Under the pieces are notes generated by a model. The model searched no databases. It saw nothing but the letters and a program-made list of their open reading frames with translations, and was not told the DNA's origin. From assembly GCA_965215505.1 (NCBI GenBank), contig OZ244065.1, positions 1,600,001-1,664,000 of the forward strand: a DNA stretch of 64,000 bases, in the 5' to 3' direction. The DNA is from Capsulimonadaceae bacterium (lineage in GTDB: Bacteria > Armatimonadota > Armatimonadia > Armatimonadales > Capsulimonadaceae). The stretch's first letter is position 1, and each line of letters begins with the position of its first letter. Below are positions 6,429-26,869 of this stretch, in pieces. The position numbers and the translations under genes are program-made.

Positions 6429-6627
6429 GTCTCCGAAGGCAGCAAGCGGCTAATCATAGCGCAGACATTCATCACTACAGCAGTACTGTTGCTAGAAACT
6501 TCTGTTGCTAAGATGCGGCAATAGCCGCTGTTATCTCGTAGTACATCGTAGTCACGCGCGGTACAGTAACAAGTTGGGCCGCTCGGCGGAAGCGTTGGCA
6601 GCGTCAGGTGTCATAAGAAAAACAAAA

Positions 6628-7227
6628 ATGTTGAACCCTGTTTGTATCCAATGCAAGAAGCCACTAACTCCAGGAAGCAACTTTTGTCCTCATTGTGGCT
6701 TGGCTTTTAATCAGCCTGTGCCGATTGTTGATGAAAAAAACGGGATCAGGAAAAAGTGGCATCCAAGAATCAAAGTGTTTGTCACGCTTGCCTCTGTGTT
6801 CCTAATTCTTTTTCTTTTCTTGCTACCCTATGGTCTAAACGCCAAAAATAAAGCGGATAAGTTGGCCGCGATTATGAATCCGATAGTTGAGCAAATTAAC
6901 TCCAACAAAATGCAAGGCGAGATCGCCGACGGCCAACGTATTGATGCTGATTCTGTTGAATGGCCTTATCATGGTCATGTGACTGAAATAAGAGTTGTAT
7001 TAGAGCCACTTTGGGATAAGCCCGTTGAATATGGGGGCGAGTCTAAGGAATGGCTTGAAAGGCGATGGTCAGGCTGCTTCGTATCTTGGTGTCTTCAAGC
7101 TGGCTATTCTGATGCTGAGGCTAATACGGTCACTATCCACTTTGAGGATAAAGCAGGAAACAATCTTGGAGACATTAGCCCCGTAGATTTTATGAGAAGG
7201 GATGGCATTGCTGGGCCTGGAAGTTAA
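6628..7227 (+). CDS. zinc-ribbon membrane protein (cassette)
   Basis: CIQC...CPHCG ribbon, one TM helix, then soluble domain; ATG 6628. Confidence 0.75.
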   Translation: MLNPVCIQCKKPLTPGSNFCPHCGLAFNQPVPIVDEKNGIRKKWHPRIKVFVTLASVFLILFLFLLPYGLNAKNKADKLAAIMNPIVEQINSNKMQGEIADGQRIDADSVEWPYHGHVTEIRVVLEPLWDKPVEYGGESKEWLERRWSGCFVSWCLQAGYSDAEANTVTIHFEDKAGNNLGDISPVDFMRRDGIAGPGS

Positions 7228-7289
7228 CCTCACGCTCTCCACTGATGTGGAACATCGTCGGTAAGTGGTCGTTCAGAAAGAGGTGCTTT

Positions 7290-7715
7290 ATGATTGATGA
7301 AACTGAAAAAGAATTATTGGTAGCCGCGTATGAGGGGAAAAGTAGTAGCTACCAAGTAGTCTACTCTGTAGGGTTTGATAGCCCTGCCGTTGAGAAGAGG
7401 TATTCTGAAGCGATCAACGACTTACAAGCAAAAGATTTGATGGACGTGCAGCATGTCTATTCATCTAACACCACGGCTCGGCCTCAGCAAAGTATTTGTT
7501 GCTTAACTCGTCAAGGGGTGAGTTATGTCGAAGAGAACAATCTTGTAGCTGATAGTGTCGCCTCAGAACACCAGAAAGCTAGACTGTTGATACAAGAAAT
7601 GGAAGATGCGGAAAAGGTAGGAGACACCAGCCGAAAAACCAACTTGAATACATCGTTTCAGCAACTTAGTCCTGCAATCCAAGCAGATGCAAAACAATAT
7701 CAACATCTAAAATAA
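7290..7715 (+). CDS. hypothetical protein, possible winged-helix N-terminus (cassette)
   Basis: RBS AGAGGTG before ATG 7290; AINDLQAKDLM...LTRQGVSYVE resembles a wHTH wing. Confidence 0.6.
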   Translation: MIDETEKELLVAAYEGKSSSYQVVYSVGFDSPAVEKRYSEAINDLQAKDLMDVQHVYSSNTTARPQQSICCLTRQGVSYVEENNLVADSVASEHQKARLLIQEMEDAEKVGDTSRKTNLNTSFQQLSPAIQADAKQYQHLK

Positions 7716-7744
7716 AGACAGCAACGAACGGCTTTGCGCGAGCG

Positions 7745-7839
7745 GCCCAACAATGCGCTGCACCTGATGCCGCCGCCAGTGCCTATTCTATATCGGCTGC
7801 TTGTGCAGGCGGTGCCGCAGGTGAGCGTTGCCATTAGGC
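7745..7839 (+). other. attC-like recombination site 1
   Basis: GCCCAAC-AATGCGCTGCACCTG...CAGGTGAGCG-TTGCC-ATTAGGC; right core has A instead of G. Confidence 0.8.
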
Positions 7840-7903
7840 CGCTGGGTCGGCGCATTCCTATCTAATCCACCATTTAGAGCAACTTCGTATAAGGAGGCTA
7901 AAT

Positions 7904-8362
7904 TTGCAAAAAGATTTTATAGTCAAACTGTTGACAAGTTTCGGCAACGGGCTTGAGAAGATTACAGTGAAACAGGGCACATCTCTCCGACAAGTGTTGG
8001 AAACGTTTGAATTAGTGACATTTGAAGAGTATTTGATGAAGGTTAGTGGTGAAGTAGTAGATCAAGACTACTTGCTACAGCCAGACGATTATGTTGTTAT
8101 AACCCCCCGTAAGGTTGAGGGTGCAGCTCCAACCTGCGAACTTCGCAAACTGAAGAAATACTTGAAAGACTTAGGATGGGTTCAAGAAGCTGGAACAGTT
8201 GGCGACCATGAAAACTGGCGAAGCCCAGAGGGCTTACTGTTGCAATTAAATCCTGCTAAACTGGATAGCAAGGTTGCTGATTTAGCATCCCATAAAAAGT
8301 GTGCGACGATTTTAGGCATAAACTTCCAAACTTTATACGAAACTGTAGCAAGTCACAGGTAA
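7904..8362 (+). CDS. ThiS/MoaD-like ubiquitin-fold domain fused to HicA-like toxin domain (cassette)
   Basis: RBS TAAGGAGG, TTG start; aa 1-74 beta-grasp-like ending KVEGA; aa about 78-152 LKKYLKDLGW...GDHENWRSP...ILGI. Confidence 0.65.
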   Translation: MQKDFIVKLLTSFGNGLEKITVKQGTSLRQVLETFELVTFEEYLMKVSGEVVDQDYLLQPDDYVVITPRKVEGAAPTCELRKLKKYLKDLGWVQEAGTVGDHENWRSPEGLLLQLNPAKLDSKVADLASHKKCATILGINFQTLYETVASHR

Positions 8363-8385
8363 AGCCGAAGCCTTTTCAGCCAGTA

Positions 8386-8482
8386 GCCCAGTAATGTGCT
8401 GCACCTGACGCCGCCGATGCCTTGTGCTTTGCGAGGCCAGGTGCTTTGCGTGCGGTATCGCCGGTGAGTGCCGCCGTCGGGC
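8386..8482 (+). other. attC-like recombination site 2 (degenerate)
   Basis: GCCCAGT-AATGTGCTGCACCTGACGCCGCCG...CCGGTGAGTG-CCGCC-GTCGGGC; homologous to site 1. Confidence 0.7.
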
Positions 8483-8542
8483 TGCTTGCATGCACAGATT
8501 GTTGCTCGTGTAATTCTCACCCTCTCTACAGTCTGGGTCAAA

Positions 8543-9556
8543 ATGGCATATTCAGGTCATGATGAAATTGAATTAGGTTCCTTACAAGAACAACTAAAAC
8601 AATTAGTAGCAGAGCGTAGAGATAATCTAAATGGCAACATGGCATTTAGCTTTGGATATGATCCCACTGTTGCGGCTATTGAACAACAAATAAATGTAGT
8701 TCAAGCAAGAATTAACAGCATTTTTGACAGAGTAACTTCCCAATCTGAAGGAAGCAAGAATTCACATAAGGTTGTAATATATGATGAGGAGTGCGAAGAG
8801 TACACGCATTTTGAGGTTGGGGATATTGTCAGTAGTAATTCTGGTAACTATTACGCTGTAAACCGCGAGGCAGCACTTGGACCTATTCTAGAGAAGTGTC
8901 AAGTAGGCCAAACGATAAGTCTTGGCTTGGTCGTTTCCGTCGATGATAGTCCTTTGTTGCCAAAACATGAGCATGAAGCAGCCAAACTAAAATATGCAGA
9001 GGCCAAAGAATTAGTCAGATTGGCAGCGGAAAGACATGCGAGACAACTTATTCTTGCAGAAGAATTAGAGCGACAACAACGCCAAAAGTTACACGCTGAG
9101 AATGAGGCGAAGGCGAGGCGTCAGCGGCATATAGAGCAGGAACAAAGGCGACAGAAAGAGAAAAAGCATCAGCAAGAGATAGAAAGGCAACTGTCTGAAG
9201 CTAGAGAGGTGCCTTACATTACGATAGATGAAGCAAAATCACGTCTGCAAGAAATCAGAACCAAATACCACACAGGTAATGCGGATAAGTCAGCTACTAT
9301 ACATGATCTATCGGTTTTACAAATAAGGTGCCAGAAAAGCTTCGCGGCAGCTTCTTCTCATCAGAGTGATTCATCAGGTGCAGGAGCAATCATAGGGGGA
9401 CTGATTGGCTTCATTGGCGGCCCGATAGGAGCCATGATTGGGGCAGGCATCGGAGCTGCCCTTGGCAGTACCGGTAAGGAAGCCTCAGAGAAAGACAGTT
9501 GGGGTCGCCCGATGCGGAATTTAGAAGCGTTCTTGGAGAAGCTATCCAATCGATGA
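8543..9556 (+). CDS. GreA/GreB-like N-terminal region + coiled coil + glycine zipper (cassette)
   Basis: KVVIYDEECEEYTHFEVG...VNREAALGPILEKCQVGQTI resembles the Gre C-terminal domain; E/Q/R-rich helix; GAIIGGLIGFIGGPIGAMIGAGIGAALG. Confidence 0.6.
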   Translation: MAYSGHDEIELGSLQEQLKQLVAERRDNLNGNMAFSFGYDPTVAAIEQQINVVQARINSIFDRVTSQSEGSKNSHKVVIYDEECEEYTHFEVGDIVSSNSGNYYAVNREAALGPILEKCQVGQTISLGLVVSVDDSPLLPKHEHEAAKLKYAEAKELVRLAAERHARQLILAEELERQQRQKLHAENEAKARRQRHIEQEQRRQKEKKHQQEIERQLSEAREVPYITIDEAKSRLQEIRTKYHTGNADKSATIHDLSVLQIRCQKSFAAASSHQSDSSGAGAIIGGLIGFIGGPIGAMIGAGIGAALGSTGKEASEKDSWGRPMRNLEAFLEKLSNR

Positions 9557-9583
9557 GCTGACGCACTTGATGTACAACAACTG

Positions 9584-9610
9584 GTCCAGCAAAGCGTTGC
9601 ACCCGACGCC
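9584..9610 (+). other. truncated attC-like site 3 (left arm only)
   Basis: GTCCAGC-AAAGCGTTGCACCCGACGCC aligns to left arms of sites 1 and 2, 27 bp after the stop. Confidence 0.55.
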
Positions 9611-17643: not shown

Positions 17644-18471
17644 TTAGCCATTGTAAGGCCGCCAGGCGGTTTTGTCAAGGCTAGATTTGAGGTGTGGAAC
17701 CGCCACCGGCTTAGGCTGCACGGTCAGGGTACTGCTGTCGTCCCGCTGCATCTCACAGATGCTGCAAATCATCAGATTTGTGCGCGGCGATCTCAGCCGG
17801 GAAGCAGGTTTGCGGAATGAGTGGCCGCACTCCAGCATGAATTGAACAGCAGACCCAGATCGGTTCAGCGTTGCTACCTGCCCCGTAGATGTGATCCCAC
17901 GCCAAAGCGAATCGGCGGCGACAATGGACTGCCATTCATAGGCCAAAGCCGGCACCGGACAAGGGCCGACATAGTCCAGAAACTTTTGCACACGACCGCC
18001 CCTCAGGTAGAGCGCGTTGTTTGTCTTGAGGCGGAAGTCCAACCCATGCTGTGACAGTTTTGGCAGCAGATCGAGCAGCGCTCGCTGTTCAAAACCATAG
18101 GTGCCTAACTCGATCTGCTGAAGTCTTTTCTTCGCATCAGCCATCAGAAACCCGTCACCGAGACACTCCGTCAGCAGCAGCGAAGGCGTCACTACTAGAC
18201 CCGGCAATAATTGCTTCTTCCTATTCGGATACCATCGGGCGTAGGCTGAAGCGTAAACAGGGTCGGTTCGGGTATCCAACAACCAATACTGGTAATTACC
18301 GGAAGGAGGGAGGCCACTAATGCGGGACGTGGTAGGGAGCTAAGAGCTGACACGCTCTAGAAACGTCGGCTCTTTGCAGGTCTGCTGGTAACGGGATTAA
18401 CGGCACTGGCTGGGGATCGTCAGGTTCCCGTCGGACATCAGAATACCATTGAGCAGCTCAATCCATGACAT
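17644..18471 (-). pseudogene. free-standing double-motif LAGLIDADG homing endonuclease, disrupted
   Basis: From ATG 18471: ELLNGILMSDGNL (motif 1), in-frame stops at 18397-18399 and 18340-18342, same frame as ORF 17644-18282 with LLLTECLGDG (motif 2) and FLDYVGPCPVPALAYEW. Confidence 0.72.
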
Positions 18472-18501
18472 CTGAAGACCTAACCGTGAGAGATGACACG
18501 A

Positions 18502-18529
18502 AGGGCCAGAAGCTAATGCTTCTGGCCCT
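18502..18529 (-). terminator. hairpin downstream of nrdJ
   Basis: AGGGCCAGAAGC-taat-GCTTCTGGCCCT. Confidence 0.75.
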
Positions 18530-18542
18530 CCCTTTGTTTAGC

Positions 18543-21500
18543 CTATGAACAGCCCAGGCTCGTGCCGCAGGAAATGCAGCGGTAGCAGGCGCCGTTGCGG
18601 ATCGTGATGGCCCCGCACTCGGGGCAGGGCGGGGCGTCGGACTGCATCCGGTAGATCTCGCGCTCGTGGTCGGCGATGGCCGCCGTGTTGGTGTCTGCGA
18701 GGTGGAACAGGTCGCTGGCCTTGGAGCCGCTGCTGTTGCCGTTCTTGCCATTGCCGCTCCCGTTGCTCAGGCTGCCGCTCTTGGCGTCGTGGGCGGCGGG
18801 GGGCGGCGGGGCCGGGAGCTTCGCGGGGGCGGCGGCGTAGGCCGGGTCGTCCTGGTCGGCGATCAGGCCGACGTTGTGGCGGTCCTCCTTCTGCAAGAAG
18901 CGCAGGGCGAGATACCGGAAGATGTAGTCCATGACGGACTTCGCCATGGGGATCTCTTTGTTGCCGGTGAAGCCGGACGGCTCGAAGCGGGAGTGGATGA
19001 ACTTGTCTACGAGCGTCGAGAGCGGGACCCCATACTGCAAGGCCAGCGAGATGGCGGTGGCGAAGCTGTCCATCAGGCCGGAGATGCTGGAGCCTTCCTT
19101 AGACATGCGGATGAAGATCTCGCCGGGCTGGTTGGTGTCCGGGTACAGGCCGACGGTCAGGTAGCCCTCGTGGCCGCCGATGCTGAACTTGTGGGTGAGG
19201 CCCGCGCGCTCGTCAGGCAGGCGGCGGCGGACGGCCTTCGGCGTGGCGAGGGGCGCGGCCTCCGCTGTCTGCATGGCCTTCTTCTCGGCGGGCGCTTCCT
19301 TGCTGGTGTTCAGCGGCTGGGTGCGCTTGGAGCCGTCCCGGTAGATGGCGACGGCCTTGATGCCCAGCTTCCAGGCCTCCATGTAGGTTTCGGCGATGTC
19401 GTCGGGCGTGGCGTCGTTGGGGACATTGACGGTCTTCGAGATCGCGCCCGAGATGAAGGGCTGGGCGGCGGCCATCATCTTGATGTGGCCCCGGTAATGG
19501 ATCGAGCGCGTCCCGTTCATCGGGCGGAAGGCGCAGTCGAAGATCGGCAGGTGTTCCGGGTCAAGGTCTGGGGCGCCCTCGATGGTGTCGTGTTCGTCAA
19601 TGAATTTGATGATGCCTTCCACCTGCGCCTCGTCGTAGCCGAGCCGCTGCAAGGCCTCGGGGACGGTCTGGTTGACGATCTTCATCATGCCGCCGCCGAC
19701 GAGAGACTTGTACTTGACGATGGCGATGTCCGGCTCGATGCCGGTCGTATCGCAGTCCATCAAAAATCCAATGGTCCCTGTGGGCGCGAGGACGGTGGAC
19801 TGCGCGTTGCGGTAGCCCGAGGCCTCGCCCTCCTCCAGTGCCTCGTCCCAGGCGGTGCGGGCGGCATCGAGCAGGGTGTCGGGGATCAGGGCGGCGTTGA
19901 TCTGGTCCACATGGTCGCGGTGCTTGTGCATGACGCGCAGCATCGGCTCGCGGTTCTCGGCGAAGCCGGCGAACGGCCCGCCGCAGTCGCGGGCGACGAG
20001 GGCGGACTGGTGGTAGGCCCGGCCCGTCATCAGTGCGGTGACGGCCCCGGCGTAGGCGCGGCCCGCGTCGCTGTCGTAGGGCAGGCCCGCCGCCATGAGC
20101 AGCGCGCCGAGGTTGGCGTAGCCCAGGCCCAGGGGCCGGAACTCGTGCGAGCGCCGCTCGATCTTGTCCGTCGGGTAGGAGGCGAACCCGACGACGATCT
20201 CCTGGGCCGTGATCATGATCCTGACTGCGTGGTCGAACGAGTCGGTGTCGAAGGCCGCCGTGCCCTCCTGCCGGAACTTCATGAGATTAAGCGACGATAA
20301 ATTACAGGCAGTGCTATTAAGGAAGAAAAACTCCGAACATGGATTAGATGCGTGGATGCGATCCGTGTTCGCGCAGGTGTGCCAGTCGTTTGCGGTGGTG
20401 TCGTACTGCATGCCGGGATCGCCGCAGACCCAGGTGCCTTCGGCGATGCTGTGCAGCAGGTCCTTCGCGCGGAAGGTTTCGGCGGTCTTGCCGGACATGC
20501 GGAACTTGGTGTCCCAGGTGGCATCGGCCTCGACCGCCTGCATGAACTCGTCGGTAACGCGGACGCTGTGGTTGGCGTTCTGGAAGGGGACGGTGTCGTA
20601 GGCACCGCCCGCGACATTGAACGCGCCCGAGTAGCCGGCGTCAATGAGGGCGTGGGCCTTCAGCTCGGCGTCCTTTTTGCAGTCGATGAACTCTTTGACG
20701 TCCGGATGGTCAATGTTCAGGACGCGCATGCAGGCCGCGCGGCGGGTGCTGCCGCCGCTCTTGATGCTGCCCGCCGAGGCGTCCAGGCCCTTCATGAAGG
20801 AGATCGGCCCGCTGGACCGGCCCCCGGCCTCCAGCGGCTCCTTGGAGGAGCGGAGGGTGGACAAGTTTAGGCCCGACCCGGAGCCGTCTTTGAAGAGCAT
20901 GCCCTCGGTCTTGTAGAGGTCTAAAATGCTCTCCATTGTGTCATCAACTTCATTTATATAGCAGGCACTCACAGCTTGACGTCTGCTTGCCCACCCCAGG
21001 TTGAACCAGACGGGGCTGTTGAAGGCGGCGTACTGGTGCAGGAGGATGAAGCGCAGCTCGTCGTGGAAGGCCTCGGCGTCGGCCTCGGTGGCGAAGTAGC
21101 TGCCCTGCTTGCCCCACTCCAGGATGCGGTCTGCGACGCGGCCGATGAGCTGCTTGACGCTGTACTCGCGCTCCAGGGTGCCGATCTGGCCCCGGAAGTA
21201 CTTGGAGACGACGACATTGGTGGCGAGCTGCGACCACTCCTTGGGGATTTCGACGCCGTTCTGCTCGAAGACGACGGCGCCGTCGCTGCCGACGATGCTG
21301 GCGTTGCGGAGTTCCCACTGGACGCTGGCCCACACGTCCTGGCCGGCCTGGGTGTAGCGGCGCGGGATGGAGAGGCCGGGGGAGTTCGTTTTGGCAGTTT
21401 TTGCGGTGCCGTTCTTCGGCGCGGCGGGTGCCTTGGGGGCCGTCTTGGCGGCGGGGGCGGGCGAAACGGGGGGCATGGGTTCTTGTTCTGTTTCTAATCT

Positions 21501-22100
21501 CTGTTCGACTTCGGGCGCGGCCACGGGGTCCGCGAATGCTTCCAGGTCGGGGCCGGCGACGGCCTCGATGACAGGCTCGGCAATGGGTTCAGCAGCAGCC
21601 TCTACGATGACGGGTTCAGCCTCGGCTTCCATGACAGGCTGGTCCGCTCCTACGGTCATAGGCTCGACGGCCACCATGAGAGGGGCCTCTTCCTCGTACA
21701 CTTCTTCTGCCGGGGCTTCCTCGTCGGTACGGAGGTTGAAATCCTCCCGTGCGGCGCGCAGGGGGCTGGCGAGCGGGGCCGGCTCGTCGGCCAGCATCCG
21801 GGCCATCACGGTGTCTTCAAACGGGTCGTCCTCGGCGAACGGGTCGGAGGCGTCGTCCAGTTGGGCGATCTGGGACGGGGCGGGGAAGTTGCCGACGGGG
21901 ACATCGGCGGGGTGGCGGGCGTCCAGGTCCACCTCATCGCCGCCGAAGAGGGCACCGCCGATGTCGGCGGGTGCGGCCTGTGCCGCCGGGGCCGGCGCGG
22001 CGGCCTTGCGCGCGGCGCGCGGCGGGGCCGGCTCCTCATCACCCATCAGGTCCAGGGTCGTCCCGGACGTACTCTTTTTCCCGTTGCTTCGCTCTGCCAT
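18543..22100 (-). CDS. nrdJ: vitamin B12-dependent (class II) ribonucleotide reductase with long acidic N-terminal extension and C-terminal TSCPD/Zn ribbon
   Basis: FNSPVWFN, SAC, SNPCSE, ACNLSSLNL, APTGTI, GIEPD, YRDGSK, CPECG..CISCG; RBS GAAGGAG before ATG 22100. Confidence 0.95.
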   Translation of the reverse strand: MAERSNGKKSTSGTTLDLMGDEEPAPPRAARKAAAPAPAAQAAPADIGGALFGGDEVDLDARHPADVPVGNFPAPSQIAQLDDASDPFAEDDPFEDTVMARMLADEPAPLASPLRAAREDFNLRTDEEAPAEEVYEEEAPLMVAVEPMTVGADQPVMEAEAEPVIVEAAAEPIAEPVIEAVAGPDLEAFADPVAAPEVEQRLETEQEPMPPVSPAPAAKTAPKAPAAPKNGTAKTAKTNSPGLSIPRRYTQAGQDVWASVQWELRNASIVGSDGAVVFEQNGVEIPKEWSQLATNVVVSKYFRGQIGTLEREYSVKQLIGRVADRILEWGKQGSYFATEADAEAFHDELRFILLHQYAAFNSPVWFNLGWASRRQAVSACYINEVDDTMESILDLYKTEGMLFKDGSGSGLNLSTLRSSKEPLEAGGRSSGPISFMKGLDASAGSIKSGGSTRRAACMRVLNIDHPDVKEFIDCKKDAELKAHALIDAGYSGAFNVAGGAYDTVPFQNANHSVRVTDEFMQAVEADATWDTKFRMSGKTAETFRAKDLLHSIAEGTWVCGDPGMQYDTTANDWHTCANTDRIHASNPCSEFFFLNSTACNLSSLNLMKFRQEGTAAFDTDSFDHAVRIMITAQEIVVGFASYPTDKIERRSHEFRPLGLGYANLGALLMAAGLPYDSDAGRAYAGAVTALMTGRAYHQSALVARDCGGPFAGFAENREPMLRVMHKHRDHVDQINAALIPDTLLDAARTAWDEALEEGEASGYRNAQSTVLAPTGTIGFLMDCDTTGIEPDIAIVKYKSLVGGGMMKIVNQTVPEALQRLGYDEAQVEGIIKFIDEHDTIEGAPDLDPEHLPIFDCAFRPMNGTRSIHYRGHIKMMAAAQPFISGAISKTVNVPNDATPDDIAETYMEAWKLGIKAVAIYRDGSKRTQPLNTSKEAPAEKKAMQTAEAAPLATPKAVRRRLPDERAGLTHKFSIGGHEGYLTVGLYPDTNQPGEIFIRMSKEGSSISGLMDSFATAISLALQYGVPLSTLVDKFIHSRFEPSGFTGNKEIPMAKSVMDYIFRYLALRFLQKEDRHNVGLIADQDDPAYAAAPAKLPAPPPPAAHDAKSGSLSNGSGNGKNGNSSGSKASDLFHLADTNTAAIADHEREIYRMQSDAPPCPECGAITIRNGACYRCISCGTSLGCS

Positions 22101-22237
22101 ACTGTCTCCTTCTAATTTTTCTGTCCTTGCTGTACCGTTGCATCTTCCGCTGAAGCATTTGTGGTACGTCATGCCGCATAGACACGCACGACGCCCAGAA
22201 TACCTTAACCGAAAATGTCTCGGCGAACAGGAAAAGA

Positions 22238-22435
22238 CTATCGCTTTTTGTTGCCAGTTTCCACTGTAGCCTGTGAGTTGCTTATTTCCACTCTCTTCCC
22301 ATCTGGTGTCGGCTTCGGCAGATTGGGCGGATGAGGCGGCACCCAATTTCTGCCTGCATCTGCATCAGTCATGCTGTAAAATTCGCCGTTCAAGGTTTCA
22401 TCTGCTACAATGGCGGCTTCATCCTTAGATGCCAT
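22238..22435 (-). CDS. motif peptide 4 (65 aa, ADAGRNWVPP)
   Basis: ATG 22435 with AAGGAAG upstream; shares motif with three upstream peptides. Confidence 0.75.
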   Translation of the reverse strand: MASKDEAAIVADETLNGEFYSMTDADAGRNWVPPHPPNLPKPTPDGKRVEISNSQATVETGNKKR

Positions 22436-22442
22436 GAGGCTT

Positions 22443-22601
22443 TCACTTCCTTTTATCCTTGCCATCTTCCGGTGACTTCACTGTGGACGGTTTAGGTGGC
22501 GATGGTGGGGTCCATGCTCGACCAGGATCGCCTTGTGTGTCATCGTGTTCACCTGGCGGAACGTCGTTTGTTAGGATAATGCTCTCGGTATCATCAGGCA
22601 T
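22443..22601 (-). CDS. motif peptide 3 (52 aa, GDPGRAWTPP); not in ORF track
   Basis: Manual translation MPDDTESIILTNDVPPGEHDDTQGDPGRAWTPPSPPKPSTVKSPEDGKDKRK. Confidence 0.78.
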   Translation of the reverse strand: MPDDTESIILTNDVPPGEHDDTQGDPGRAWTPPSPPKPSTVKSPEDGKDKRK

Positions 22602-22607
22602 GATATA

Positions 22608-22787
22608 CTACTTTCGGCCGCCGCCGTGGTCTTTAGATGGCGGCGGGGGAATAGGTTTCTGAGGTGCTGGAGGTGCATTCCAGTTCCGGCCTGGATCTCC
22701 TGAGTATCTATCCAATACTGGATCAGGCTGAGGCTGTGGCATCGGCAAGTTGCGCGGTTCTGGAATGTCATTGCTCACGCTGGTCAT
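22608..22787 (-). CDS. motif peptide 2 (59 aa, GDPGRNWNAP); not in ORF track
   Basis: Manual translation MTSVSNDIPEPRNLPMPQPQPDPVLDRYSGDPGRNWNAPPAPQKPIPPPPSKDHGGGRK; ATGA overlap with peptide 1 stop. Confidence 0.78.
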   Translation of the reverse strand: MTSVSNDIPEPRNLPMPQPQPDPVLDRYSGDPGRNWNAPPAPQKPIPPPPSKDHGGGRK

Positions 22788-22984
22788 GATTTACTATCTG
22801 GTGTGCTGTTGCTACCACCGCTGTTTGTGCTTCCACTTGACTGAGAGGCAGTCGTGTCTGCTTGGGGGGCAGATGGCGTGGGTTTGGAAGGAGCTTTCCA
22901 GCCCCGGCCCGGATCACCTTTGATGGAATCACGCTTATCCGGGCTAACCATCTTTTCCATCGTCATGTTTTTGTCTGATGCCAT
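22784..22984 (-). CDS. motif peptide 1 (66 aa, GDPGRGWKAP)
   Basis: RBS TAGGAG; starts 12 nt after 3-TM gene stop. Confidence 0.78.
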   Translation of the reverse strand: MASDKNMTMEKMVSPDKRDSIKGDPGRGWKAPSKPTPSAPQADTTASQSSGSTNSGGSNSTPDSKS

Positions 22985-22996
22985 TCGTGTTTGCTC

Positions 22997-23743
22997 CTAT
23001 CGTATGTTCATAACCGCGAAGGTGACGATTAATCCCAAGCCAACGATGAATGCTATGGTTGCCGTGAGGTTGAGGGCTTCTGTCAATTTACGGAATGTTT
23101 CCCGCTTTCTAGTGTAGCACTCCGACTTCTTAGTAAAATTTTCTTGTTCACCGTCATCTTTGGACAAAGAACTGTCTTTGTTCGATCTCGCGGCTTCTAC
23201 TGAGTAGGATAAGCTCTTCCGGGAAGCGAAGTATGATACGAGGACGAACACAACTGTCAGGCCTAATGAACCCCAACCTCCACGAAGATACCATAAGTCT
23301 TTAAGTGAGTGCTTGTTGCTGAGAAGCGTACCGATGAACGTCGCGGATAATGCCAAGATGCCACTACTTATGGTCAACAGCAAATTGTCAGCTTTTTCGT
23401 AACTAGCTGCAATCAGTTTCTCTTGCTGTTCCTCATACTTGTCGAAGGAGGCGGATGTGTTCTCCCTAAACTTTTCCCACTCCTTCTCTGCACTATCTTC
23501 TACGCTTCCGGAGGTTGCAGAAGGCGTGATAATTATGGAGGGGACAGTTATACTTATTGTCGCACTGCCAAATGAGAACTGCACATCGCTTGGAAGCCCG
23601 GCAGGGGCAACTTGTGCAGTTGGTGCCGCAAGACCTGAATGTACCTTTCCTTGTGTCGCCTCTACTTTTCGAGGTACAACATTCTGCGGATGATGATTGG
23701 CCGCGCCTGACTCCACCTTTTCACTCTGAAGATCAGTTTTCAA
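22997..23743 (-). CDS. hypothetical 3-TM membrane protein, AT-rich
   Basis: Hydrophobic segments LLLTISSGILALSATFIG, WGSLGLTVVFVLVSYFA, LNLTATIAFIVGLGLIVTFAV; start codon uncertain. Confidence 0.75.
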   Translation of the reverse strand: MKTDLQSEKVESGAANHHPQNVVPRKVEATQGKVHSGLAAPTAQVAPAGLPSDVQFSFGSATISITVPSIIITPSATSGSVEDSAEKEWEKFRENTSASFDKYEEQQEKLIAASYEKADNLLLTISSGILALSATFIGTLLSNKHSLKDLWYLRGGWGSLGLTVVFVLVSYFASRKSLSYSVEAARSNKDSSLSKDDGEQENFTKKSECYTRKRETFRKLTEALNLTATIAFIVGLGLIVTFAVMNIR

Positions 23744-23771
23744 TCTACTGCCCTCTGTCAGACAAACCCGG

Positions 23772-24260
23772 TCACTCTTTTCGCAGGCGACCGCCCTGCT
23801 TCTTCAGCAGGTTCACGATGTCGCGGAACTGGGTGGCGTCCTCGAACTGGCGGTACACGGACGCGAAGCGCACATAGGCGACCTGGTCGATGCGGCGCAG
23901 GTTCTCCATGACCATCTCGCCGATCTCGGACGACGGGACCTCTTTGTCCAAGCGGTTGGTCAGGGTCCGCTCGATGTCGTCGGAGATGGTCTGCAAAGTT
24001 TCCTCGGAGATCGGGCGCTTCTGGCAGGCCACGCGCAGGGAGCGCAGCAGCTTGTTCCGGTCGAACGGCTCGCGGCGCTGGTGGCCGTCGCGGTCGGGCT
24101 TCTTGACGACGGTGAGCTGCATCTCCTCGATGGTTTCAAACGTGGTGAAGCGCCGCTCGCAGTGCTTGCACTCGCGTCGCCTCTTGATGGCCTCGCCGTC
24201 GCGCATCGGGCGCGAGTCCAGCACGGCGTCGTTGTCATGGCCGCAGTACGGGCACTTCAC
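23772..24260 (-). CDS. nrdR: transcriptional repressor NrdR
   Basis: MKCPYCG..DSR..RRRECxxCxxRFTTFE, ATP cone, VAYVRFASVYRQF. Confidence 0.97.
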   Translation of the reverse strand: MKCPYCGHDNDAVLDSRPMRDGEAIKRRRECKHCERRFTTFETIEEMQLTVVKKPDRDGHQRREPFDRNKLLRSLRVACQKRPISEETLQTISDDIERTLTNRLDKEVPSSEIGEMVMENLRRIDQVAYVRFASVYRQFEDATQFRDIVNLLKKQGGRLRKE

Positions 24261-24340
24261 GAAGATGTTATCCTATGCACCCCATCTTATCCCATGCACC
24301 CCACCGGAGCGAAATCCTCCGCGCTGCCTCTCGTCGGTCT

Positions 24341-24393
24341 TTCCTACATATTGTGTAGGTTTTTAGTATATCACACTAAATATGGCCTGTCAA
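24341..24393 (-). promoter_or_regulatory. nrdR promoter with tandem NrdR boxes
   Basis: Minus-strand TTGACA (24388-24393), 17 bp, TATACT (24365-24370); boxes ACACAATATGTAGGAA (24341-24356, rc) and ACACTAAATATGGCCT (24373-24388), 32 bp apart. Confidence 0.85.
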
Positions 24394-24487
24394 GGGTTGC
24401 GCGATTCTTTTTCTTCGGTACGCCGTCCTTCAGTTAGCGGGCTGATTAGCCATAATCCTCTATAAGACTTAACAGCAGCGAGGCGGC

Positions 24488-24694
24488 ATGATGACTCCTA
24501 ATCCCATCGGCATTCTGAACGGGCAGGGCGGCGAGATCCTCATCGAGATCATCCAGGACCAGGGGGGCGTCAAAGCCTTCCCTAAGGACGGCAATAAATC
24601 GATGCTGGAGACTTTGGAACGGCTTGCGGAGGACGGCTACCTGGAGATGCTCAGGGAGACGCCGGACACGATCATCTACACGCTCGCCGTCTGA
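24488..24694 (+). CDS. small hypothetical protein
   Basis: RBS GAGG, host-like codon usage, LERLAEDGYL helix. Confidence 0.6.
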   Translation: MMTPNPIGILNGQGGEILIEIIQDQGGVKAFPKDGNKSMLETLERLAEDGYLEMLRETPDTIIYTLAV

Positions 24695-24824
24695 GATCCT
24701 GTGAGCGCCTAAATCCTTTGAGCGGAGGGAGGCCCCGCGCGGCCCCGAAATCGGGTACAACAACGGCATTAAGAACGGCTAAGAGTCCCGTCATGGCTGA
24801 CGGGCGGAGCCGGAGGGGAATGCC

Positions 24825-25835
24825 ATGCATGTACTGTTTATCGGCGGGACCGGGCTGATCTCGACGGCCATCGCTCGCCAGCTTTTGGAGGCGGGGCACC
24901 AGGTCACGCTGTTCAACCGGGGCAAGTCCGAGAGCCGCCTGCCGGGCGGCGCGTCGGAAATACGCGGCGACCGCAAGGACTATGCGGCCTTCGAGCAGGG
25001 ATTCGGGGATAAGACCTATGACGTCGTCGTGGACATGGTGGCCTTCCATCCCGATGATACGGCTTCGGCCATCCGGGCGTTTACGGGCCGGTGTGGTCAG
25101 TTCATTCACTGCTCCACCGTCTGCGTCTACTCCGGCCCCGTCACCCAAATCCCGACAACCGAAACTGAGCCGTACCATAGCATCGGCGGTTACGGCAAGA
25201 ACAAGGCGGCCTGCGAGGAGCTGCTGTTTCGTGCTTTCGCAGACGGTCAGTTCCCTGCGACGGTCATGCGGCCCTCGCACTCCTACGGCGAGGGCGGCGG
25301 CATCATACGCTCGGTCGGGCCGGGCGACACGTTCCCCGACCGGCTCCGCAAGGGCAAGCCGGTCATCGTGCAGGGTGACGGCAACTCGCTCTGGGCCTCC
25401 TGCCATGTGGACGATGTGGCGCGCGGGTTCATCGCCGTCATGGGCAACGCCAAGTGCCTGGGGCAAGCCTACAACATCACCGGCGACGAGTGGTTTACCT
25501 GGAACACCTATCACGAGCAGGTGGCAGAGGTCTGCGGCGGCACCTTCAAGCCGGTTTACATCCCTACCGAAACCTTGCGCGAAGTCGCGCCCGGCATGGC
25601 GGGCGGGACCTATGAGATCTTCGAGTGGCCCTCCGTCTTCGACAACGCCAAGCTGAAGCGGGACACGGATTACGCGGGCCAGACGATCAACTTCAGGGAA
25701 GGCACGCGCCGGACCCTGGCCTGGCTGGAGTCGAACGGCAAGCTGAAGGACAGCGACGCGGACGACTACGAGGACCGGCTCGCTGCGGCCTGGGCGGCGA
25801 AGACGGCGGAACTGCCGAAGCAGTCGGGAAGCTGA
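24825..25835 (+). CDS. NAD-dependent epimerase/dehydratase (atypical SDR)
   Basis: IGGTGLIS, YGKNK, HVDDVARG. Confidence 0.9.
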   Translation: MHVLFIGGTGLISTAIARQLLEAGHQVTLFNRGKSESRLPGGASEIRGDRKDYAAFEQGFGDKTYDVVVDMVAFHPDDTASAIRAFTGRCGQFIHCSTVCVYSGPVTQIPTTETEPYHSIGGYGKNKAACEELLFRAFADGQFPATVMRPSHSYGEGGGIIRSVGPGDTFPDRLRKGKPVIVQGDGNSLWASCHVDDVARGFIAVMGNAKCLGQAYNITGDEWFTWNTYHEQVAEVCGGTFKPVYIPTETLREVAPGMAGGTYEIFEWPSVFDNAKLKRDTDYAGQTINFREGTRRTLAWLESNGKLKDSDADDYEDRLAAAWAAKTAELPKQSGS

Positions 25836-25840
25836 CCCCC

Positions 25841-26869
25841 ATGGACGCAGAACAGGTTCGGAAGCGGCTCCGGTCGCGGCAGACGCAGGACCGCATTGGG
25901 GCGGTCAAACAGGCGCTGGGCCTGGACCGGCCGGAGCGGCAGGCGCTTCTTTTGGAGGCGCTGGCCGACAAGTCCCCCTACGTCGGTGCCCTGGCGGCGG
26001 AAGCCTTGGGCGAGAGCGCCGACGACGCGGCGGCAGTGGTGATGACGGAGCGGTTCGCCCACCTGAGCGAAGACGGCCCCGCACGCGACCCCGGCTGCCA
26101 CATCCGGGGCAACCTGGCGTTTGCGCTGGGCCGCCTGCAATGCTATGCCGCCTCGGATGTGCTGCGGGTCGGCATCCGCACGGTGCAGATCGAGGCGGTC
26201 GGGGGCGTCCCGTTCGACACGGCGGCCCACCTGCGTGCGAACTGCGCCCTGGCCCTGGCCCAGATCCGCGACCTGGACAGCGTCCGCGACATCGCCCTGC
26301 TGCTGTTCGACCGGAGCGGCTTCGCGCACGGCCTCCCCGACCCCAGGGTCAAGATGGAGCCGCGCAAGGCGGCGGCGCGGGCGCTCTCCCTGACGGGAAG
26401 CCCCCAGTCGCGCCTGCCGCTGACCCTGCGGCTGGTCCACCCCGAGAACGAGGAGCCGGAGGTCCTGCAAGAGTGCATGCAGGCGCTTGTAGAGCTGGAA
26501 GACCCCCACGCCCTGGAAGTCCTGGAACCCTACCTGAGTCACCGCGACATGCGCCTGGCCGCTTACGCCGCCCTGATGATTGCCCAGACGCAGGCCCCCG
26601 AAGCGGCAGCCCTGCTGGCCGGGGCCATCGAGCGCCTGTCCGGCGATCCCCTGCGCGCGACTGTCTTGGCCCTGATGACTCTGCACACCCCCGAAGCCCA
26701 GGAACTCCTCTACTCCCTGACCCGCTCCAACCGCGAGGCCGTCCGCCTAGCGGCGGTCGAGGCCCTGCCCCGCAGCTCGGCGGGCCGGACCGTTTTGGAA
26801 GCCCTCGCCGCCCACGACCCCTCGGCGCGCGTCCGCGCCGCCGCGAAGGCCGTTATCGCTCAGGAGTAG
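25841..26869 (+). CDS. HEAT-repeat protein
   Basis: Repeated VRxAAxxAL helices; ATG 25841 follows the previous stop. Confidence 0.8.
   Translation: MDAEQVRKRLRSRQTQDRIGAVKQALGLDRPERQALLLEALADKSPYVGALAAEALGESADDAAAVVMTERFAHLSEDGPARDPGCHIRGNLAFALGRLQCYAASDVLRVGIRTVQIEAVGGVPFDTAAHLRANCALALAQIRDLDSVRDIALLLFDRSGFAHGLPDPRVKMEPRKAAARALSLTGSPQSRLPLTLRLVHPENEEPEVLQECMQALVELEDPHALEVLEPYLSHRDMRLAAYAALMIAQTQAPEAAALLAGAIERLSGDPLRATVLALMTLHTPEAQELLYSLTRSNREAVRLAAVEALPRSSAGRTVLEALAAHDPSARVRAAAKAVIAQE

Follow-up and report, generated by a model that had tools for sequence, protein, structure and literature searches.

The window analysed here, a stretch of 64,000 nucleotides (nt) of contig OZ244065.1 from a Capsulimonadaceae bacterium, contains at positions 22238-23743 a gene for a membrane protein with three transmembrane (TM) helices, followed directly by four small open reading frames (ORFs) whose products share a short motif. 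The membrane protein is referred to below as the core, and the four small products as peptides 1 to 4. The parts of this module, all on the minus strand, are as follows, in window coordinates.

22997-23743, minus strand: 3-TM core protein, an ORF of 248 amino acids (aa) with a TTG start
22985-22999, minus strand: junction of core and peptide 1, with the core TAG stop (22997-22999) lying within TAGGAG, a Shine-Dalgarno-like (SD-like) sequence
22784-22984, minus strand: peptide 1, 66 aa, KGDPGRGWKAP, in frame with the core
22608-22787, minus strand: peptide 2, 59 aa, SGDPGRNWNAP, 27% Pro
22443-22601, minus strand: peptide 3, 52 aa, QGDPGRAWTPP, 6 nt past peptide 2
22238-22435, minus strand: peptide 4, 65 aa, DADAGRNWVPP, 7 nt past peptide 3

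The original prediction, made from the letters of the DNA, had described four packed ORFs of 66, 59, 52 and 65 aa with an overlap followed by gaps of 6 and 7 nt, and we found this arrangement exactly as claimed, on the minus strand. The overlap is an ATGA, in which the ATG of peptide 2 lies over the stop of peptide 1, and an alternative upstream ATG at 22465 would extend peptide 4 to 75 aa. The core TAG is separated from the ATG of peptide 1 by 12 nt, with four further in-frame codons between, in the arrangement TAGGAG-N9-ATG. The shared motif that the prediction had placed at the centre of each ORF is real: in a four-way alignment, the segment G-D-P-G-R-x-W-x-x-P and its surroundings contain seven invariant residues (D24, G26, R27, W29, P32, P35 and P37). 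The motif codons vary synonymously (G as GGT, GGA or GGC; P as CCG, CCA or CCT; R as CGG, CGG, CGA and AGA in the four copies), and an origin of the motif from a nucleotide repeat was ruled against, no direct repeat longer than 16 nt being present between the ORFs (five families of 13-16 nt). Basic C-termini, likewise foreseen, were present in three of the peptides (RK, KRK and KKR). All four peptides are hydrophilic, with 11-27% Pro, isoelectric points (pI) of 4.6-9.2 and grand averages of hydropathy (GRAVY) of -0.9 to -1.5, and none contains a Cys, a hydrophobic stretch or an export signal. A profile built from the four peptides found only these four sites in the 6.18-Mb genome (E 1e-17 to 1e-29; next E 0.72), and no second copy of the peptides or of the core was present in that genome.

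A word-indexed search returned four homologues of the peptides (P0007-P0010). Three of these (P0008-P0010) are orthologues of peptide 1, 52-60% identical to it, with the same MASDK start and a similar end, and P0007 is an orthologue of peptide 4. The same type of search returned five homologues of the core with 49-69% identity, which agree with the TTG start. Two of the peptide orthologues lie on contigs of 9,572 and 144,490 nt, and contigs of equal size carry cores that are 69% and 57% identical to that of the window, their co-location being judged by equal contig size only. A closer relative was found in sequencing run X4, from another study, in which a contig is 92% identical to the window over 22056-23594, with 124 differences. 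Among the differences listed, whose count may be incomplete, at least 31 fall in the four ORFs. Of these 31, 16 are synonymous and 15 non-synonymous; they alter 13 of the 242 residues, none of these within D-x-G-R-x-W, and the six changes listed in or beside the motif leave the residues as they are. The four frames remain open in this copy and every stop is kept. These data strongly indicate that the four peptides are real, selected coding genes. The earlier suggestion of selection on the peptides and of a tie to the membrane protein is thus supported by the orthologues of peptides 1 and 4 and by the 92%-identical copy.

The core was confirmed as a 3-TM protein, with hydrophobic peaks at about residues 127-134, 159-169 and 228-239 and a weaker fourth peak at 63-72. 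The AlphaFold2 model consists of three long helices (81-142, 150-192 and 201-247) with a mean predicted local distance difference test (pLDDT) score of 76; the membrane parts of the helices lie at about 121-141, 157-174 and 225-245, and the N-terminal 80 aa are variable. From the 5' end of the membrane gene (window 23594-23772), 177 nt are absent in the X4 copy, suggesting that the N-terminal ~50 residues of the core, which are modelled with low confidence, are variable or dispensable. Comparison of the core model with the Protein Data Bank (PDB) by Foldseek gave nothing below E 0.27, and the family profile described below gave nothing below E 0.15 against PDB sequences. The window protein matched no Pfam family at E<=1 and had no NCBIfam match. 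A match to the PADLOC model LeoBC (E 4.5e-6, residues 78-211) was taken as compositional, because it covers the TM/helical stretch and was seen in 1 of 50 family members. Complex prediction with core residues 78-248 (6-row alignment) and the peptide alignment gave a score of 0.02, from which we draw no conclusion.

When a profile of the core family was searched against 1.84 billion cluster representatives, it matched 4,215 proteins at E<=0.001 and 1,206 at E<=1e-10, the matches covering the 3-TM core only. Members that carry a name are annotated as 'hypothetical protein', and the family occurs in Pseudomonadota, Acidobacteriota, Planctomycetota, Thermodesulfobacteriota, Chloroflexota, Bacteroidota, Verrucomicrobiota and Armatimonadota; in the ESM Atlas the nearest clusters are likewise 'hypothetical protein', and a PycTM cluster scores just 0.80. 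No Pfam, NCBIfam, PHROGs or PADLOC family was consistently matched by 50 members of the family, in which 18 Pfam families appeared at E<=0.01, none of them in more than two members. Scans of genome and metagenome contigs with six close homologues found nothing, and a plasmid search gave one weak match, in Hymenobacter (E 0.005). The window core matched the 50-member profile at E 3e-48 in an alignment that crosses the TAG into peptide 1, and the locus shows the profile match, the SD and ATG junction and the four motif peptides that place it in this unnamed family of 3-TM proteins with tails. The original prediction had called the module undescribed, and that description holds: no curated model or paper describing such a module was found, and literature listings, in part from a loosely aimed search, and passages of PMC9122126 gave no description of one. 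As judged by sequence comparison, the core belongs to a membrane protein family for which we found no curated model, solved structure or paper, and the module is unnamed.

Most members of the family carry a C-terminal extension behind the third helix. Among 153 members with a complete core end, this tail was longer than 30 aa in 96, 11-30 aa in 12 and at most 10 aa in 45. In the long tails, which are Pro-rich and often terminate in K/R, a short motif specific to the lineage occurs one to three times. The motif reads G-A-x-I-P-x-M-Q-x-V-P in Pseudomonadota, G-R-x-P-x-x-M-T-P in Acidobacteriota and G-x-V-P-P-K-x-P in Planctomycetota. In a fused proteobacterial member the tail was modelled with a pLDDT of 55-78, above what is usual for free disorder. 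Peptide 1 of the window takes the place of the tail, since its ATG is in frame with the core TAG and the alignment of the family profile continues through that TAG; its placement in the position and frame of the tail is strongly indicated. The prediction had seen the peptides as possible ligands, antitoxins or decoys for the membrane protein. The tie to the core was borne out, and the peptides are not a separate invention; they stand in the position of the family's own tail, in frame behind the TAG, with an SD and ATG junction as in the fused relatives.

This junction was surveyed in 77 named genomic loci, 52 of which are fused with a complete core. Carriers among the named sources include Dyella japonica DSM 16301, Variovorax paradoxus MEDvA23, Trichlorobacter thiogenes ATCC BAA-34, Asticcacaulis tiandongensis and Methylobacter psychrophilus. 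A Met occurs within the first 16 tail residues in 41 of the 52 fused loci, and in 37 of these 41 an SD-like 4-mer lies at -17 to -4 of that Met. Such 4-mers were found at 7 of 78 internal Met codons and at 624 of 6,112 core codon positions (10%), which were used as controls. The high frequency at tail Met codons, compared with these low control values, suggests that the tail unit can be translated alone even when it is fused to the core. It had been anticipated that motif peptides would be found near homologues of the membrane protein, and a small Pro-rich ORF was indeed present directly behind the core in 10 of 11 short-tail loci. The ORFs behind short-tail cores mostly carry the motif of their own lineage and number one to four per locus, in several phyla; extra small Pro-rich ORFs also lie behind 22 of 50 fused genes, and tight four-peptide arrays occur in L096 (Pirellulales) and L073 (Asticcacaulis). 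A tree of the cores, which is at odds with taxonomy and cuts across phyla, requires at least seven changes between fused and split forms, five of them forced by well-supported branches alone. Taken together, these observations strongly indicate that fused and split forms interconverted several times. They also strongly indicate, on the evidence of gene sequences, that the tail unit is independently translatable family-wide, as separate ORFs or from a nested SD and ATG. The tight packing of the ORFs likewise strongly indicates that the peptides of the window are translationally coupled to the core.

The module lies between two genes of ribonucleotide reduction. The surrounding features are as follows.

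22113-23775: inserted block of ~1.66 kb, delimited by empty-site contigs and GC contrast
23772-24260, minus strand: nrdR, upstream flank, outside the module (Pfam ATP-cone and Zn_ribbon_NrdR)
18543-22097, minus strand: nrdJ, class II ribonucleotide reductase, downstream flank (Pfam Ribonuc_red_lgC, Ribonuc_red_2_N and TSCPD), with a likely start at 22097
24343-24393, minus strand: promoter-like site (TTGACA-17-TATACT with TG) and a 17-nt palindrome, CCTACATATTGTGTAGG, upstream of nrdR

The GC content of the module (22238-23743) is 49.9%, as compared with 64-66% in nrdR and nrdJ. In 9 of 11 loci from the same genus, nrdJ follows nrdR after about 20-260 nt, and X2 and X4 contigs represent empty sites, in which 22101-22112 and 23776 are separated by just 23-35 other letters. 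In the 23 genomes of the same genus that were searched, no credible match was obtained with the peptide profile or with the core protein. Across 60 related genomes, the core protein matched two distant genomes of the same family (G030 and G032); matches of the peptide profile in G034 (E 0.0036, in a 726-aa frame) and G003 (E 0.0044, with a stop) were taken as noise. In a search of the phylum with the family profile, the family was present in 11 of 401 genomes, the genome of the window (G000) included, and in none of the 17 same-genus genomes of that search. The best explanation for these findings is that the block was horizontally acquired and inserted into the nrdR-nrdJ operon. In this genus, the nrdR-nrdJ spacer seems to serve as an insertion site for small cargo of the conflict type. 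Gaps of about 570 and 730 nt with SMI1_KNR4 (SUKH-1) genes were observed between nrdR and nrdJ in G012 (L018:1986-2559) and G010 (L022:768-1501), the SUKH-1 matches having E values of 1.6e-6 and 4.6e-4, respectively (the latter at 21.2 bits, below Pfam's 25.4-bit cut-off).

The module is probably transcribed together with the operon, since a promoter-like site lies upstream of nrdR and no minus-strand terminator-like site was found between 21900 and 24500. The site at 24343-24393, close to the sigma-70-type consensus, is likely to be the promoter of nrdR, the module and nrdJ. The palindrome that follows it, CCTACATATTGTGTAGG, resembles an NrdR box; by this analogy, nrdR, the inserted module and nrdJ would be under NrdR autoregulation. 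An Rfam search over 18000-26000 gave nothing relevant. We also noticed that NrdJ begins with an extension (encoded at 21290-22097) of ~270 aa that is of low complexity, rich in Ala, Pro and Glu and located ahead of the class II N-domain; congeners are 46-80% identical in this extension, as compared with 87-95% in the catalytic part. Another island of low GC content (48-50%) lies at 6500-9600 of the window, with four plus-strand ORFs of 240, 156, 152 and 362 aa; its only Pfam matches were to a zinc ribbon and a glycine zipper, both at or just under the cut-offs.

The gene neighbourhoods of the family are variable. The upstream neighbours of ten loci encode Lon, a BNR protein, three DNA methylases, HsdR, an integrase, two HerA proteins and ClpB, and the neighbours of 61 loci include type I/II restriction-modification, HerA, integrase, AbiEii-like AAA_21 and XRE-M78 genes. 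The commonest families among the 122 neighbouring ORFs of these 61 loci were XRE helix-turn-helix (HTH) proteins with an M78 peptidase domain (8-9), followed by HerA, integrase and AbiEii-like AAA_21, and no partner gene was conserved beside the 61 related loci. In eight Geobacter-like loci (L059, L067, L069, L071, L075, L080, L085 and L087) the family gene is divergent to a gene for an XRE-HTH and M78 protein of 378-379 aa. These proteins match the PADLOC models RmrA and CapP, which hints that the XRE-M78 partner may be a DNA-damage-type or antitoxin-type regulator of the membrane gene in the Geobacter-like clade.

The layout of the core resembles that of PycTM, the 2TM effectors of cyclic oligonucleotide-based antiphage signalling systems (CBASS) and SLATT proteins, with an N-terminal helix containing a conserved acidic-basic pair ahead of TM1, a TM1-TM2 hairpin, a helical cytoplasmic insert and a C-terminal TM helix. 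Both the 2TM-type effectors and the core family are also found in variable, defence-type neighbourhoods. The likeness to these effectors is one of layout only. PADLOC models on 50 members gave PycTM in 3 (E 0.002-0.005), the 2TM effector in 2 and RTasSLATT in 1 (E 0.0048), and NCBIfam SLATT_5 matched 1 of 50 at E 0.0099. Identity with PycTM was rejected: PF18967 was absent among the families matched by the 50 members (E<=0.01), the window protein matched no Pfam family, and no adjacent pyrimidine cyclase was found, the flanks being nrdR and nrdJ and none being present among the 25 commonest neighbour families. At another site (G000:C1:5425556-5425840, L120) the genome does encode a true PycTM-domain protein (PF18967, 61.7 bits), and the PycTM family occurs in 26 of 401 genomes of the phylum. 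Identity with SLATT was likewise rejected, no SLATT model (Pfam SLATT_1-5, NCBIfam NF033631) matching the window protein. SLATT proteins are defined by linkage to SMODS, SLOG or reverse-transcriptase genes, and none of these was found in the window or among the 25 commonest neighbour families. To our knowledge, none of the PycTM, CBASS 2TM and SLATT families possesses Pro-rich tails or tail-like micro-proteins.

Other known systems share single features with the module. In the defence protein CapRel(SJ46), toxin and antitoxin are fused, and the antitoxin segment at the C-terminus both inhibits the protein in cis and acts as the sensor of a phage protein; as in the present family, a regulatory C-terminal segment may be fused or separate, and switching between the two states marks functional coupling. 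The fold and chemistry are unrelated, the family described here combining a putative membrane effector with a disordered Pro-rich peptide. The holin and antiholin of lambda S (S105/S107) are two products of one 3-TM frame made from alternative starts two codons apart at the N-terminus. The core resembles lambda S as a small 3-TM protein with a charged C-terminal end, for which a second ribosome-binding site would give a second product; however, the nested start of the present family is situated behind the last TM helix, its product would be a soluble peptide, and loop 2 greatly exceeds that of holins in length. Identity with a phage holin was rejected, the neighbours being nrdR and nrdJ with no endolysin or lysis cassette nearby. 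Aureocin A70 (aurABCD, from Bacillota) is encoded by a multi-peptide leaderless operon with hydrophobic and cationic peptides. The module has in common with it four tandem, leaderless, paralogous small ORFs, but the peptides of the window are hydrophilic, Pro-rich and partly acidic.

We consider it highly likely that the peptides are real, tail-equivalent proteins that are functionally coupled to the core. As an explanation of the whole, we lean, by a modest degree, towards an acquired two-part membrane module with detached tail peptides and a role in genetic conflict. One part would be the 3-TM protein of a large unnamed family, and the other the four small, hydrophilic, Pro-rich proteins, which would represent free-standing, amplified C-terminal tails. 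The peptides would work with the core, binding either the core itself or the binding partner of its tail. The core may act as a membrane-perturbing effector in a conflict system, and the tail peptides as its neutralising or sensing element, diverged copies widening the range that is sensed. A conflict module fits best because of the patchy spread, the foreign GC content, the horizontal transfer and the defence-type neighbours. The more specific proposal that the peptides regulate a membrane-perturbing effector of the abortive-infection or toxin-antitoxin type is tentative; the signs of such a pair are indirect, namely the tight translational coupling, the mobility of the module and the defence-type neighbours at some of the loci. 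Still bolder, and in our view rather unlikely, is the idea of a gene-within-gene family of several thousand clusters, in which every member would also, or only, make its tail as a free micro-protein, and the peptides, titratable, fast-evolving and Pro-rich, would restrain the membrane-breaching three-helix effector until an invader removes, binds or outcompetes them.

Several observations weigh against this interpretation. Charge counts in 150 members gave K+R fractions of 0.15 before TM1, 0.05 in loop 1 and 0.18 in loop 2, placing the N-terminal flank and loop 2 inside, loop 1 outside and the C-terminus outside; a fused tail would accordingly be located outside the cytoplasm. This predicted location clashes with free peptides that have no export signal. 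The clash would be avoided if insertion of the third helix were not constant, if the peptides were exported, or if sidedness were irrelevant to function. The equivalence of the peptides and the tails is also not visible in similarity searches: a phmmer comparison of the four peptides with 96 family tails performed no better than reversed or shuffled controls, the best peptide-tail E values being 0.002-0.04 as compared with 0.0002 for a reversed peptide. It is therefore position, frame, junction and composition that argue for the equivalence. Visual inspection allows G-D-P-G-R-x-W-x-x-P-P to be aligned with G-A-x-I-P-x-M-Q-x-V-P so that G, W/M and the final P coincide, and we infer a possible correspondence of the two motifs. 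To the same side belong the background for an adjacent small Pro-rich ORF, which was 110 of 523 other ORF stops (21%), and the possible incompleteness of the substitution count in the X4 copy. With regard to a conflict role, the neighbourhoods are not uniformly of the defence type, since Lon, ClpB, nrdR/nrdJ and metabolic genes occur there as well; the 8 XRE-M78 neighbours all belong to a single Geobacter-like clade, and no more than three or four loci, closely related to one another, account for the HerA neighbours. The queries used retrieved no relative from INPHARED phages or IMG/VR viral contigs, and when the family was compared by hhalign with 19 true PycTM proteins of the phylum, the probability was a non-significant 13% over 52 TM-hairpin columns.

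The topology problem would disappear if the peptides were leaderless exported products, serving as a signal, in competition or as surface-bound molecules, with the 3-TM protein as their exporter, anchor or immunity protein; the fused relatives would then display the peptide outside on the third helix, in agreement with the charge counts that put the C-terminus there. Tandem paralogous leaderless peptides behind a small membrane protein recall leaderless bacteriocin operons, and a mobile, patchy module would suit such products. However, the peptides are hydrophilic, free of Cys and neutral to acidic, unlike known leaderless bacteriocins, no ATP-binding cassette (ABC) transporter or other export gene recurs nearby (25 commonest neighbour families), and no export activity is known for a three-helix protein. 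We regard this alternative as improbable, and we assign a similarly low likelihood to an envelope or adaptor module outside conflict, in which the tail motif would dock onto a conserved host protein, free copies would raise the dose and the location in variable regions would be incidental. Linear docking motifs typically look like this one, being short and conserved within a disordered, Pro-rich segment, the pLDDT of 55-78 rather than <50 in the fused proteobacterial tail is in keeping with it, and housekeeping genes (Lon, ClpB and nrd) are among the neighbours. Against this stand the foreign GC content of the insertion and the very patchy distribution of the family (11 of 401 genomes of the phylum and no credible match in the same-genus genomes searched); moreover, the strong divergence of the motif from lineage to lineage would be expected of a partner that evolves fast rather than of a conserved host protein.

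A functionless origin of the four ORFs, as debris of one repeat-bearing tail broken by stops or frameshifts, is very improbable, even though peptide 1 lies in frame behind a single TAG, fused tails with two or three motif copies exist and, in L064, the tail is interrupted by a stop with no new start codon. Each of the four ORFs has its own ATG and leader, both the orthologues whose cores are 51-69% identical and the 92% copy keep the ORF boundaries, L096 and L073 acquired the same layout of four ORFs, and an intact adjacent ORF is kept in 10 of the 11 short-tail loci. The least probable of the explanations, and one that we give hardly any credence, is that the peptides are precursors of ribosomally synthesised and post-translationally modified peptides (RiPPs), whose modifying enzymes would be encoded at other sites. 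The tandem arrangement of paralogous small ORFs, in which a conserved motif lies between variable flanks, would suit such precursors, and their processing in trans had been put forward in the original prediction; but the peptides contain no Cys, and the same segment is part of the membrane protein in 96 of 153 relatives. The proposal also found no support in the neighbourhoods, where no modifying-enzyme family recurs (25 commonest families, 122 ORFs, 61 loci).

If the two-part membrane module proposed here is correct, a protein family that spans phyla as 'hypothetical protein' would gain a defining and testable feature, namely a short Pro-rich tail unit that is translated alone and can be fused, split and amplified. 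Hundreds to thousands of unannotated micro-protein genes could then become callable by rule, and the family would be a clear example from nature in which genes that repeatedly fused and split mark a partnership between a protein and a peptide. It would also provide a candidate for a new membrane effector module in phage defence or addiction. Should the gene-within-gene design prove true, it would constitute a new single-locus immune or addiction module, of which the four copies in the present bacterium would form a sensor or decoy array.

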